Positions 15,015-18,817 of a DNA stretch of 43,624 bases are shown piece by piece. Below the pieces are notes generated by a model, which ran no database searches, was not told where the DNA came from, and saw only the letters and a list, made by a program, of their open reading frames with translations. The stretch's first letter is position 1. The number at the start of each line of letters is the position of its first letter. Source of the stretch: Alphaproteobacteria bacterium (lineage in GTDB: Bacteria; Pseudomonadota; Alphaproteobacteria; Rhodobacterales; Rhodobacteraceae); NCBI GenBank assembly GCA_009908405.1, contig JAAAPG010000020.1:1-43624 (forward strand). The letters run 5' to 3'. The position numbers and the translations under genes are program-made.

Positions 15015-15340
15015 CAGGACTGATGGAAGTGGAAGTGACCTGCCCGGACGAGGACAGCGCCCGCCAGATTGCCCGCGCAACGCTTGGCGCACGGCTGGTG
15101 GCCTGCGCCAATATCCTGACCGGGGTAGAAAGCCTGTTCCATTGGCAAGGTCAGATCGATTCGGAAAGCGAAACCCTGTTGCGGCTGAAAGCCCCCGCCG
15201 CCAATTTCGATACGATCTGCACGATCATCGCCGCGCACCACCCTTACGAGCTGCCTGCCATCACCGCCCTGCCCCTTGCCGCCATCGGCCCCGGCGTGGC
15301 CGATTGGGTGGCCACCGAATGTCAGGACGCGAAGACCTGA
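15011..15340 (+). CDS. cutA: Divalent-cation tolerance protein CutA
   Basis: ARLVACANIL, SLFHWQG, HHPYELPAI; ATGA overlap with the upstream gene. Confidence 0.92.
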   Translation: MTGLMEVEVTCPDEDSARQIARATLGARLVACANILTGVESLFHWQGQIDSESETLLRLKAPAANFDTICTIIAAHHPYELPAITALPLAAIGPGVADWVATECQDAKT

Positions 15341-15735
15341 TCGGCGCTGGCATAGCCCTTCACCTCTATCGGGTTGCCGGACGGGTCGCGGAAGAACATG
15401 GTCCATTGCTCACCCGGCTGGCCTTCGAACCGCAGGGTTGGCGGGATCACGAACTCGACACCCGCCACCCCAAGCCGGTCGGCCAGCGCGCGAAAACGCT
15501 CCGCATCCAGCACCAGCCCGAAATGCGGCATCGGCACCATGTGGTCGCCCACTTTGCCCGTGGGCGCGTTGGCGAAGGGTTCGCCCAAGTGCAGGCTGAT
15601 CTGGTGGCCGAAGAAATCGAAATCCACCCAAGTGTCCGTGCTGCGCCCTTCGGCACAGCCCAAAACGCCGCCGTAAAAGGCGCGGGCTTCGTCCAGGTCG
15701 GTGACGTGGTAGGCGAAGTGAAAGGGCATCGGCAT
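15322..15735 (-). CDS. VOC/glyoxalase family protein
   Basis: FHFAYHVTDLDEARAFYG, DFDFFGHQISLH, PHFG, FFRDPSGNPIEVK. Confidence 0.92.
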   Translation of the reverse strand: MPMPFHFAYHVTDLDEARAFYGGVLGCAEGRSTDTWVDFDFFGHQISLHLGEPFANAPTGKVGDHMVPMPHFGLVLDAERFRALADRLGVAGVEFVIPPTLRFEGQPGEQWTMFFRDPSGNPIEVKGYASADQVFAS

Positions 15736-15796: not shown

Positions 15797-15825
15797 TGGA
15801 CGCCCCGCGCCTGCAACCCTATAAG
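15797..15825 (+). promoter_or_regulatory. sigma70-type promoter for the ileS leader
   Basis: TGGACG-N17-TATAAG; expected start site about 6-7 nt downstream coincides with the A of ATG 15832. Confidence 0.65.
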
Positions 15826-15831
15826 GCGCGC

Positions 15832-15879
15832 ATGTTTCATATAGCGATCATCCAGCGAATTAGCGTCCCGGCACTCTGA
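15832..15879 (+). CDS. Putative Ile-rich leader peptide of ileS (MFHIAIIQRISVPAL)
   Basis: ATG TTT CAT ATA GCG ATC ATC CAG CGA ATT AGC GTC CCG GCA CTC TGA; 4 of 15 codons are Ile; its 3' end lies in a perfect 10-bp stem (15867-15876 / 15888-15897). Confidence 0.65.
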   Translation: MFHIAIIQRISVPAL

Positions 15880-15943
15880 CGCGCCCGGAGTGCCGGGTCA
15901 CGATTGCGCTTGCCCCTCCACAGTTTGCGAAAGATCGCCCAAG

Positions 15944-18817
15944 ATGACCGACTACAAAGACACCCTGTCCCTGCCCGAAACAGATTTCCCCATGCGCGCG
16001 GGCCTGCCTGCCCGCGAACCCGACTGGCTGGCCCGGTGGGAACGGCTTGGCATCTATGACCGCCTGCGCGCCAATGCCGAGGGGCGCAACCCCTTCATCC
16101 TGCATGACGGCCCGCCCTACGCCAACGGCCACCTGCATATCGGCCACGCGCTGAACAAGGTGCTGAAGGATTTCATCACCCGCAGCCAGCAAATGCTGGG
16201 CCGCGATGCGCGCTACGTGCCGGGCTGGGACTGCCACGGCCTGCCCATCGAATGGAAGATCGAGGAAAAATACCGCGCCGAGGGCTTGGACAAGGACGCG
16301 GTCGACGTGGTCGATTTCCGTCAGGAATGCCGCCGCTTCGCCGACCAGTGGATCGACGTGCAGCGCGACGAATTCAAGCGCCTTGGCATCACCGGGAAAT
16401 GGGACAAACCCTACCTGACGATGGATTACCACGCCGAAGCGGTGATCGCGGACGAGTTCATGAAGCTGGTGATGAACGGGTCTTTGTATCAGGGGTCCAA
16501 GCCCGTGATGTGGTCGCCGGTGGAAAAAACCGCGCTGGCCGAGGCCGAGGTCGAGTATCACGAGCATACGTCGCATACGATCTGGGTTCGGTTTGCCGTC
16601 GTGTCTGGGGACTTGAAAGGTGCCTCCGTCGTCATCTGGACCACAACCCCTTGGACCATCCCGCAAAACCGCGCGGTGTGTTTCGGCCCCGGCATCGCCT
16701 ATGGTCTCTATGAAGTGACCGAGGTGCCCGAAGGCGCAAAGCTAGAAGCGGGCGAAAAGGTCATCCTCGCCGATGCGCTGGCCGAAAGCGCATTCACGCA
16801 AGCCAAGGTCACGGCCCAGCGCCTGAGCGATGTGTCGGCGGATGAACTCGGCGCAATGATCCTCGCCCACCCCTTCCGGGGCGTGGCCGAAAACGGCGAA
16901 TGGGATTTCGACGTCCCCATGCTGCCGGGCGACCATGTCACCGACGAGGCGGGCACCGGGTTCGTCCACACCGCCCCCAGCCACGGCGATGACGACTATC
17001 AGATCGGCCTGAAACACGGCCTGCCGATGACCTATAACGTGCTGGAAGATGGCAGTTATCGCCCTGACTTGCCCATCTTCGGGGGCGAGGTGATCGTCAA
17101 GCCCGACGGCAAGGAAGGCGGCGCGAATGTGGCCGTCATCAAGCAACTCGCCTATGCGGGCAAGCTCTTCGCCAAGGGCAAGCTGAAACACAGCTACCCG
17201 CATAGCTGGCGCTCGAAAGCGCCGCTGATCTACCGCAACACCGCGCAATGGTTCGCCGCCATCGACAAACCGCTCGATGACGGCATGGGCGAGCATGGCG
17301 ACACGATCCGCAAACGCGCGCTCGAATCCATCGACCGGTTGGTGAAATGGACGCCCCAGACCGGGCGCAACCGGCTGTATTCCATGATCGAGAACCGTCC
17401 CGACTGGGTGCTGTCGCGCCAGCGCGCTTGGGGCGTGCCGCTGACATGTTTCGTGAAAAAGGGCGCGAAGCCGACCGACCCGGACTTCCTGCTGCGCGAC
17501 GAACAGGTCAACGCCCGCATCAAGGCCGCGTTGGAGGAAGAGGGCGCGGATGCATGGTATGTGAAAGGTTTCGAGGAGCGTGTCCTTGGAAACCTGCACG
17601 ACCCGGAAGCCTATGAGCAGGTTTTTGACATTCTGGACGTGTGGTTCGATTCCGGGTCAACTCACGCGTTTGTCCTACGCGACCGCGAAGATGGCAGCCC
17701 CGACGGGATTGCGGACCTTTACTTGGAAGGGACCGATCAGCACCGTGGTTGGTTCCATTCTTCCATGCTGCAAGCCTGCGCCACCAAGGGCCGCGCGCCC
17801 TATCGCGGCGTGCTGACCCACGGGTTCACGCTGGACGAGAAGGGCATGAAAATGTCCAAATCGCTGGGCAACACCATCGCCCCGCAAGAGGTGATCGACC
17901 AGTACGGGGCCGACATCCTGCGCCTGTGGGTCGCGCAATCGGACTACACGGCGGATTTGCGGATCGGCAAGGAGATCCTGAAAGGCGTGGCCGACAGCTA
18001 CCGCCGGTTGCGCAACACGCTGCGCTTCATGCTGGGCAACTTGGCCGGGTGGTCGGAAGACGAACGCGTCGCCCCCGCCGACATGCCGGACCTGGAACGG
18101 CTGATGCTGCACCGCATGGCCGAGTTGGACACCGTCGTGCGCAAGGGCTACGACGCCTATGACTTCCAGGGCGTGTTCCAGGCCTTGTTCAATTTTGCAA
18201 CAACGGACCTGTCGGCCTTCTATTTCGACATCAGAAAAGATGCACTTTACTGCGATGCGCCGGGCAGCCTGCGCCGCCGCGCCGCGCGCACGGTGCTGGA
18301 CCTGCTGTTCCACCGCCTGGTGACATGGCTCGCCCCGATGCTGCCCTTCACCATGGAAGATGTCTGGCTGTCGCGTTTCCCCGCGGATGATGACAGCGTG
18401 CATTTGCACGACATCCCGGCTACACCTGCCGACTGGCTGGACCCGGCCTTGGCCGAGCACATGAAAACCGTTCGGATGGTCCGCCGCGTCGTCACCGGCG
18501 CCTTGGAAGAAGAACGCCGCGCCAAGACCATCGGCGCCAGCCTGGAGGCCGCGCCTGTCGTGCACCTGACCGACACGCAGGCGCAGATCGTGACCGATCC
18601 GGAAACCTTCGCCGATCTGTGCATCACATCGGGCGTAACGCTGACAACCGACTCAGCGCCGGAAGAAGCCTTCAGCCTGGACGATGCGCCGGGCGTGGCC
18701 GTGGTCTTTGCCCGCGCCGACGGGCAAAAATGCCAGCGCTGCTGGAAGATCAGCCCGGATGTAGGTAGCCACGCGCACCCGGATACCTGCAAGCGGTGCA
18801 GTGACGCCCTCGGATAA
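15944..18817 (+). CDS. ileS: Isoleucine-tRNA ligase (type 1)
   Basis: DGPPYANGHLHIGH, GWDCHGLPIE, WTTTPWT, GTGFVH, KMSKS, C-terminal CQRC...CKRC zinc finger. Confidence 0.98.
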   Translation: MTDYKDTLSLPETDFPMRAGLPAREPDWLARWERLGIYDRLRANAEGRNPFILHDGPPYANGHLHIGHALNKVLKDFITRSQQMLGRDARYVPGWDCHGLPIEWKIEEKYRAEGLDKDAVDVVDFRQECRRFADQWIDVQRDEFKRLGITGKWDKPYLTMDYHAEAVIADEFMKLVMNGSLYQGSKPVMWSPVEKTALAEAEVEYHEHTSHTIWVRFAVVSGDLKGASVVIWTTTPWTIPQNRAVCFGPGIAYGLYEVTEVPEGAKLEAGEKVILADALAESAFTQAKVTAQRLSDVSADELGAMILAHPFRGVAENGEWDFDVPMLPGDHVTDEAGTGFVHTAPSHGDDDYQIGLKHGLPMTYNVLEDGSYRPDLPIFGGEVIVKPDGKEGGANVAVIKQLAYAGKLFAKGKLKHSYPHSWRSKAPLIYRNTAQWFAAIDKPLDDGMGEHGDTIRKRALESIDRLVKWTPQTGRNRLYSMIENRPDWVLSRQRAWGVPLTCFVKKGAKPTDPDFLLRDEQVNARIKAALEEEGADAWYVKGFEERVLGNLHDPEAYEQVFDILDVWFDSGSTHAFVLRDREDGSPDGIADLYLEGTDQHRGWFHSSMLQACATKGRAPYRGVLTHGFTLDEKGMKMSKSLGNTIAPQEVIDQYGADILRLWVAQSDYTADLRIGKEILKGVADSYRRLRNTLRFMLGNLAGWSEDERVAPADMPDLERLMLHRMAELDTVVRKGYDAYDFQGVFQALFNFATTDLSAFYFDIRKDALYCDAPGSLRRRAARTVLDLLFHRLVTWLAPMLPFTMEDVWLSRFPADDDSVHLHDIPATPADWLDPALAEHMKTVRMVRRVVTGALEEERRAKTIGASLEAAPVVHLTDTQAQIVTDPETFADLCITSGVTLTTDSAPEEAFSLDDAPGVAVVFARADGQKCQRCWKISPDVGSHAHPDTCKRCSDALG

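Follow-up and report, generated by a model that had tools for sequence, protein, structure and literature searches.

In the classical transcription attenuators, represented in E. coli by pheM-pheST, ilvL and trpL, a short leader containing cognate codons precedes an amino-acid or synthetase gene, and leader-peptide attenuators of the tnaC and mgtL type depend on Rho. For ileS, which encodes isoleucine-tRNA ligase (IleRS), T-boxes are known in Firmicutes and Actinobacteria, the actinobacterial ones also acting on translation initiation, and leader-peptide attenuators have been predicted for Streptomyces leuS and trpS (PMC1262725). In the polycysteine attenuators of mycobacteria, the small open reading frame (ORF) is leaderless, a stalled ribosome blocks a structure that sequesters the ribosome-binding site (RBS), and several operons share the system (Canestrari et al., bioRxiv 10.1101/834739). 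Here we analyse the region upstream of ileS in a 43,624-nt contig of an alphaproteobacterium of the family Rhodobacteraceae (GenBank assembly GCA_009908405.1, contig JAAAPG010000020.1; the whole stretch is referred to as the window), where a predicted leaderless upstream ORF (uORF) is followed by a stable hairpin, H1 (Table 1). The element probably acts as a leader-peptide attenuator whose nearest counterpart is the mycobacterial leaderless type, and it too is found before several operons. Whereas the mycobacterial leaders carry runs of the cognate codon, what is invariant in the ileS leader is a single CGA-AUU pair followed by a hairpin at +12, and an RBS duplex is predicted in some lineages only. 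It shares with the classical attenuators the short leader with cognate codons, and differs from them in having neither a U-tract terminator nor a conserved antiterminator, and in its predicted leaderless start. With the ileS T-boxes it has the target gene and the likely signal in common; it is not itself a T-box (the window has no Rfam match at the gathering score, the best E-value being 7.5, to unrelated families), and sensing would go through the translating ribosome.

The invariant part of the leader is a single CGA-AUU-A context with a hairpin 5 nt after the AUU, not a run of Ile codons, a feature overlooked in a preliminary description of the locus. The sampled DNA upstream of ileS comes from 17 genomes of the genus (18 loci), from 70 family loci (29 best matches, 40 picked down a ranking of 130 genomes and one from the class search), from 76 class loci (one per family, mostly those with the higher scores among 135 matches) and from 77 named loci (three duplicates dropped); these samples favour IleS proteins close to the query, and related genomes are not independent. 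When only the hairpin is used to define the element, an ATT ends exactly 5 nt upstream of it at 18/18 genus, 62/70 family, 25/76 class and 52/77 named loci, giving 157 of the 241 alphaproteobacterial ileS loci. One of the 25 class matches (L145) was a wrong site adjoining the true one, and was dropped. The other peaks, at offsets of 2, 11 and 14 nt, are in-frame Ile codons, and no remaining offset is represented by more than two loci. Counted by genome, a pattern scan found matches in 17 of 31 genomes within the Alphaproteobacteria, and the element is present in 26 of 29 examined genomes of the order containing a Parvularculaceae genome. Outside the class the pattern occurred in 8 of 90 genomes, compared with 9 for a reversed control, which is the chance level, and none of the three such loci inspected was leader-like.

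An ATG lies in frame with the ATT, within 25 codons, at 156 of the 157 loci, compared with 11 and 15 in the other two frames, and 6 to 28 codons precede the Ile. The core layout is CGA ATT A followed by four free positions, the last of which is directly followed by CCCGG. CGA is used in 150 of the 156 leaders and Arg is kept in 152; an A follows ATT in 153, and Pro stands at +3 in all 156, partly owing to the search pattern. Between CGA and the hairpin, ATT is found 177 times, ATC once (L103) and ATA never. From the Met to the invariant Arg, Ile makes up 18.4% of the residues compared with 4.6% genome-wide, with no enrichment of Val (2.6%) or Leu (6.5%) and with Lys, Asn and Tyr each below 1.5%; 19 of the 156 leaders have a single Ile. 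The stop codon of the uORF lies inside H1 in 151 of 153 cases. Comparison of the sequences thus points to a conserved, class-wide leader element that is read by ribosomes, and the earlier proposal of an Ile-enriched, probably leaderless uORF lacking an intrinsic terminator is borne out by the homologous leaders, which recur across the Alphaproteobacteria. In the window itself, the 15-codon leader has four Ile codons and uses all three of them, including the rare ATA, as originally described. In the source genome, ATA and ATC account for 6.4% and 75% of Ile codons, CGA for 4.4% of Arg codons, and an in-frame CGAATTA occurs once in 727,900 codons; CGAATTA-N4-CCCGG has one match in the window and none in 100 shuffles of it.

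Several natural variants depart from this layout. In L265 the ORF stops directly after Arg-Ile, in L146 it stops after Arg-Ile-Thr with a different stem, in L073 Arg-Thr replaces Arg-Ile, and L223, from a Bartonella genome, is a decayed Arg-Met version. One genome (G018) has two ileS copies, each with a leader (L004 and L028), one of which has a single Ile codon; this may reflect contamination of the bin (the assembly is 88-90% complete and 3% contaminated) or a true duplication.

Hairpin H1 was originally described as a perfect 10-bp stem with the stop codon in its loop. The ten Watson-Crick pairs are indeed there and are extended by a U-G and a G-C pair to a total of 12 (-23.5 kcal/mol, z-score -4.7, none of 200 shuffles as stable); the stop codon is in the loop of the 10-bp core, whereas the extension pairs its UG. 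H1 is paired in 97.3% of the cells of an alignment of 61 leaders. The whole leader, from 15832 to 15946, also folds more stably than expected (z-score -3.7, with 1 of 200 shuffles reaching its stability); its minimum-energy and centroid structures contain all three outer helices first drawn by eye. Consensus folds yield only H1 and a second hairpin, H2, which follows H1 in most of the family and carries compensatory changes; no conserved antiterminator was found, and no consistent downstream refolding distinguishes a ribosome at AUU from one at the stop codon. There is no intrinsic terminator on the plus strand between 15300 and 16200; the reported absence of a U-tract after the stem holds in the window, and at least five T in the 8 nt after H1 are seen in only 6 of 153 homologues.

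Taking the first base of CGA as +1, AUU occupies +4 to +6 and H1 begins at +12. This is the spacing at which stem-loops inhibit A-site tRNA binding in vitro when counted from the P-site codon; inhibition is gone when the stem-loop is moved two bases further, and stems of 11-12 bp have been suggested as optimal (PMC7282821, PMC8861025). Like the pausing stem-loops of dnaX and HIV gag-pol, which are the ones described there, H1 has roughly 12 bp and begins at +12, counted from the P-site codon. By analogy, H1 may slow tRNA binding at the AUU of these leaders. Unlike dnaX and gag-pol, the ileS leader has neither a slippery site, which CGA AUU does not provide, nor a conserved second frame, and the pause would sharpen sensing rather than promote frameshifting; frameshifting or read-through into ileS is rejected, as the distances from uORF to ileS fall in all three frames. 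The natural variants narrow the essential part further: in L265 the uORF has no codon beyond Arg-Ile, and 7 of 19 uORFs preceding an ACT-like gene (see below) run past the start of the matched domain.

The start of the leader is predicted to coincide with the start of the transcript. Both the promoter, TGGACG-N17-TATAAG, and the ATG codons of the leader and of ileS are found where they had been placed. Among the genus and family leaders that have TATAA, 62 of 71 have a -35-like hexamer exactly 17 nt before it, the -10 box is 6-7 nt from the ATG in 69 of 80 leaders, and a Shine-Dalgarno (SD)-like word precedes the uORF ATG in only 2 of 156. In L069, L070 and L083, AAG occupies the usual leaderless ATG position and the ATG follows directly, giving a 3-nt leader. 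A promoter scan overlooked the TATAAG promoter because it requires a T at the last -10 position, which most alphaproteobacterial promoters lack (PMC7703639). In Caulobacter crescentus, CCNA_03934, named 'ileS leader CDS', is a ribosome-mapped, leaderless ORF of 14 codons with a 5' triphosphate that ends 78 nt before ileS (PMC4117421). It is very probably the orthologue of the leader ORF described here, judged by position and size. Its RNA density is 829 and 1185 reads per kilobase per million (RPKM) compared with 138 and 148 for ileS, that is, 6- to 8-fold more RNA, along with 6- to 10-fold more ribosome density (PMC4117421), RPKM being noisy for a 45-nt ORF at a 5' end. Within the text of Schrader et al. 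2014 that reports these values, CCNA_03934 served only as a negative control (PMC4117421), and among the literature searched it is mentioned in that paper only. That the leader ORF had already been mapped in Caulobacter was likewise overlooked in the preliminary description.

The element is not confined to ileS. A class-wide pattern scan returned 110 matches in 69 of 151 genomes, and 60 regions with 61 matches were inspected. Two genomes flagged as unpublished (G185 and G393) enter the analysis solely through the totals of genomes searched. Two of these are ileS leaders; of the other 59 matches, 30 have CGA, and 25 of the 30, in 24 loci chosen by eye, resemble the element, with an in-frame ATG in 24 of the 25 compared with one and one in the other frames. 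In 16 of the 24 loci the element stands before a small ACT-like gene and in four before an AAA_33 gene; the rest lie upstream of a threonine ammonia-lyase-like gene (G201), a ribF-ileS operon (G207) and, in two cases, unnamed genes. The ACT-like gene corresponds to ACT_12 clusters in the atlas (0.93-0.95; the profile was built from 13 of the 16). It is followed by the gene for citramalate synthase (cimA) in 4/4 genomes of one family and by a biosynthetic ilvA operon in G187. Citramalate synthase and threonine ammonia-lyase start the two routes to isoleucine, and these targets are therefore evidence for isoleucine sensing that is independent of the codons in the leader. The ACT-like protein, which has no solved relative by sequence and no homologue in the source assembly, is possibly an isoleucine-binding regulator. 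In total, the ACT-like gene was seen under a leader in L389 (233-547) and 18 other loci, next to cimA, ilvA, ileS or a DUF4743 gene, and in L101 and L418 it stands directly before ileS. The AAA_33 P-loop genes under a leader (L349, L360, L391 and L403) belong to four families, and one locus has two complete elements in tandem (L390 and L408, at G203:C11:64975 and 65175) before unnamed genes and an aldolase-like gene. The attenuation surveys of Vitreschak (2004) and Lopatovskaya (2010) reportedly list ilvA, and not ileS, among the predicted alphaproteobacterial targets, and the ilvA copies may therefore have been predicted before.

Where ribF directly precedes ileS and there is no stand-alone leader, CGA ATT A is found in the last codons of ribF, in four families (L277-L283, L292, L318-L320, L123 and L325-L340), with a hairpin 5-6 nt after the ATT whose sequence differs from CCCGG. 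The motif is in frame in 22 of its 23 occurrences among 96 ribF-adjacent loci, a set that includes enriched follow-up families as well as a few loci with stand-alone leaders and a probable duplicate. In two genera, the Arg and Ile of the ribF tail are the only such columns fixed on rare codons (12/12 and 5/5). In L320 the motif is at another position within ribF, and in L282 the segment Arg-Ile-Thr-Gly-Thr is duplicated, with only the hairpin-adjacent copy scored as the motif. Against a role of the ribF tail in ileS control, a promoter-like sequence separates the hairpin from ileS in one of the genera (6/6) and in L292, and the second genus has a CCCGG stem that starts two codons later and competes with a weaker stem at +12. 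We tentatively suggest, at somewhat less than even odds, that Alphaproteobacteria run an isoleucine regulon (ileS, cimA, ilvA, the ACT-like gene and others) through a portable sensor made of a single CGA-AUU codon pair and an entry-channel hairpin, coupled to lineage-specific outputs and arisen several times in ribF tails. If so, an ordinary enzyme gene, ribF, would serve as the leader peptide of the next gene, and the tail of a normal gene could act in this way.

It is highly likely that the leader senses Ile-tRNA, and for this genus we propose a mechanism in four steps. First, transcription would start on the leader AUG and a 70S ribosome would translate the leader, as shown for the Caulobacter ileS leader ORF. 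Second, once CGA occupies the P site and AUU the A site, H1 would lie at the mRNA entry channel, an arrangement whose geometry is seen in the leader sequences and whose kinetic effect is presumed; by slowing tRNA binding at AUU, H1 would let one Ile codon, together with up to three upstream, report the supply of Ile-tRNA. Third, as suggested by folding and conservation, the leader would be cleared when Ile-tRNA is plentiful, the 5' segment would pair with 15922-15938 and the ileS start would be closed; the untranslated ileS mRNA would then likely be lost to Rho or to decay. Fourth, when Ile-tRNA is scarce, the waiting ribosome would cover 15832-15866, the outer helices would be blocked and ileS would be translated. 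Taken jointly, the Ile-tRNA gauge and the release of the ileS start site in this genus have a probability of roughly 0.55.

Release of the start site, the output assumed in the third and fourth steps, is the best-supported output here, ahead of Rho termination and RNase E cleavage, and it is somewhat more likely than not in this genus. The preliminary description had proposed that the Ile-codon segment pairs with the ileS initiation region, a prediction supported in the genus, where in 13 of 15 distinct leaders this segment can pair with the 32 nt that precede the ileS AUG (z-score < -1.65). The predicted duplex between codons -6 to 0 and these 32 nt has a mean energy of -14.0 kcal/mol compared with -7.6 kcal/mol after shuffling, and the signal is concentrated in the last 20-30 nt before the AUG, peaking in the last 20. 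In the genus, the initiation region has a predicted accessibility of 0.35 in naked RNA, of 0.59 when a ribosome occupies the AUU and of 0.56 when the 5' segment is shuffled; in the window leader it rises from 0.30 to 0.48. The register and the letters of the outer helix vary between species with the pairing kept. The ileS starts were at first wrong in about 27 of 155 loci and were re-picked for the duplex, accessibility and C > G results, whereas the unpaired-C test and the profile of unpaired AAUUA given below rest on the first starts.

Several points weigh against this reading, besides the limits on the Caulobacter comparison given above. The proposed pairing does not extend through the family: it is weak there (14/62) and absent from Rhizobiaceae-like leaders (0/14), and family accessibility barely moves (0.48 naked, 0.52 stalled, 0.48 shuffled), results by which a class-wide SD-sequestering duplex is rejected. 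The genus sequences are close kin, and the 13/15 are therefore not 13 independent cases; the inner RBS helix has no two-sided change, and RNAalifold, run on the genus alignment as had been proposed, did not select the RBS pairing and chose another partner for GCG. AUC is read by the same tRNA as AUU, so the count of 177 AUU to one AUC is not explained by Ile sensing alone. As to the other targets, the element precedes one of the six long-form ilvA genes in the 151 genomes, the other five having none within 520 nt, and most copies at the ACT-like gene lead to DUF4743 or unnamed genes. Finally, 24 public RNA runs each contained at most 7% of the sequence words of the stretch, and no Ile-starvation experiment on this leader was found in the literature searched. 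The likely sensor is class-wide, and the output step appears to differ between lineages.

The same Ile-tRNA sensor could instead act on Rho termination, which we regard as unlikely; in the absence of a waiting ribosome, Rho would load on the C-rich spacer as well as the free leader and stop transcription before or early in ileS. The rarity of a U-tract after H1 and the presence of H2 are consistent with it, a rho gene is encoded in the genome, and the RNA density in Caulobacter falls 6- to 8-fold from leader to ileS (PMC4117421). In addition, the 40 nt leading up to the ileS RBS contain more C than G in 62/62 family and 14/15 genus leaders, compared with 50% of 772 genome controls; however, element-less ileS loci are also C-rich (74% of 66). 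A ribosome at AUU would moreover leave the spacer uncovered, and the wrong sign of regulation is expected in copies whose uORF continues through the spacer. Folding with a ribosome at the stop codon exposes no extra unpaired C, and a Rho site exposed by melting of H1 is not supported by this test.

Less likely again is that the sensor acts on mRNA stability, with the waiting ribosome shielding a single-stranded RNase E site, GA-AUU, next to the hairpin, cutting of which would start the decay of ileS mRNA. This would account for the preference for AUU over AUC and for the G two bases upstream, which is retained in the AGC, GGC and CGC variants, and it has the correct sign in all layouts (a stop after Arg-Ile as in L265, a stop in the hairpin, a long uORF or a ribF tail). 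AAUUA is predicted to be unpaired in the family (about 0.8), whereas the GA-AUU site is predicted to be partly paired in this genus. The consensus of RNase E, worded RNWUU, is too loose to demand CGA, and cleavage has no need of a reading frame. The genome encodes a gene of the RNase E/G family, and RNase E, which has a preference for U two bases past the cut, is active in R. sphaeroides at AU close to start codons (PMC10503654, PMC6238624), although the three supplements of PMC6238624 examined have no row for a cleavage site in ileS.

Improbable, in our judgement, is a ribosomal pause that responds to a signal other than charged Ile-tRNA, be it slow decoding of CGA, reading of two successive A-starting codons that depends on N6-threonylcarbamoyladenosine (t6A), an arrest peptide R-I-x-x-P, or a protein that binds CGAAUUA and the CCCGG stem. 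The near-invariance of the Arg, of the Pro at +3 and of the A-starting codon after AUU, with the counts and the caveat given above, would fit such signals, as would the 33 tRNAs found in the genome, which include tRNA-Arg(ACG) but no tRNA-Arg(UCG). Further Ile codons are few in the non-ileS copies (19 of 256 residues), some of which stand before AAA_33 genes with no known link to isoleucine. Against these possibilities, the ileS leaders are specifically enriched in Ile using all three codons, the element is associated with ileS, cimA and ilvA, the peptide past Arg-Ile is dispensable in L265, and the stem sequence differs in the ribF-tail copies. Mimicry of a tRNA T-loop and a consensus pause of RNA polymerase were judged by eye and dropped, as the needed bases are not conserved. 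The probability is negligible that the ORF and the hairpin arose by chance, or that the hairpin is a constitutive stabiliser without regulation, for although GC-rich DNA commonly has hairpins and the strict element is absent from 8/70 family loci, pure chance is refuted by the ATT-hairpin spacing at 157 loci and the frame of the ORF, and the class-wide invariance of codons and the rarity of in-frame CGAATTA speak against both.

Returning to Ile-tRNA sensing, the element offers a precise, class-wide and easily mutated candidate, in model species, for how IleRS and isoleucine synthesis are matched to demand, of which the literature searched held no description for Alphaproteobacteria. In that literature, which covered few subscription journals, the Caulobacter mention is the only trace of an ileS leader of this kind, and part of an S. 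meliloti Ribo-seq supplement and a uRBS supplement contain no row for one. The element would also be a natural use of pausing by entry-channel hairpins, so far a matter of in vitro work and of frameshifting, in which the pause sharpens sensing on a single codon, and it links isoleucine metabolism with a family of ACT-like proteins that is so far uncharacterised.

Table 1. Features of the ileS leader region, in window coordinates
Feature	Position	Strand	Remarks
Predicted housekeeping promoter	15797-15825	+	-35 TGGACG 15797-15802, 17-nt spacer, -10 TATAAG 15820-15825
Leader ORF MFHIAIIQRISVPAL, predicted leaderless	15832-15879	+	ATG 6 nt past the -10 box, no Shine-Dalgarno sequence, stop TGA 15877-15879
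Auxiliary Ile codons ATA, ATC, ATC	15841-15852	+	ATA 15841, ATC 15847 and 15850; 5' strand of the outer helix: GCGATC 15844-15849
Invariant core CGA ATT A (Arg-Ile, next codon A-starting)	15856-15862	+	CGA 15856, ATT 15859; presumed P-site and A-site codons of the waiting ribosome
Hairpin H1, base CCCGG...CCGGG, 12 bp	15867-15897	+	contains the uORF stop; first base at +12 from the first base of CGA
Pyrimidine-rich spacer, candidate Rho-loading stretch	15898-15921	+	GCGCT 15906-15910 can pair with AGCGT 15862-15866
Anti-leader segments AGTTTGC and GATCGC	15922-15938	+	15922-15928 and 15933-15938; flank a weak SD-like GAAAGA; predicted pairing with the Ile-codon segment
ileS, isoleucine-tRNA ligase, 957 aa, downstream gene	15944-18817	+	TIGR00392 above cut-off

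The downstream gene scores 805.6 bits against TIGR00392 (cut-off 621.4) and is the single match in the assembly; relatives of its product that carry names, at about 75-81% identity, are mostly from Rhodobacteraceae. Upstream, a glyoxalase-family gene (15322-15735, minus strand) is divergent from the ileS leader; its longest ORF would start at 15840 and overlap the leader in antisense, and the more likely start is the one at 15735. The genome has just one other match to the motif (G000:C74:11614-11629, minus strand), inside rho and without a hairpin; it recurs in other rho genes and is a chance match. No comparable leader was seen in the source genome for pheS, trpS or the candidate leuS/valS and serS genes, thrS is cut by a contig end, and a genome scan for leaderless short ORFs, whose own filter excluded the ileS locus, gave 38 rows, none convincing. 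The genome does have a classical attenuator about 170 nt upstream of position 1894 of contig G000:C124 (plus strand), where the leader MRNALVIVVGKTRMGR is followed by a GC hairpin and a T-run before the gene for the acetolactate synthase large subunit. This ilvI leader has the classical layout, unlike the ileS leader, and the two thus present the contrast within one cell.

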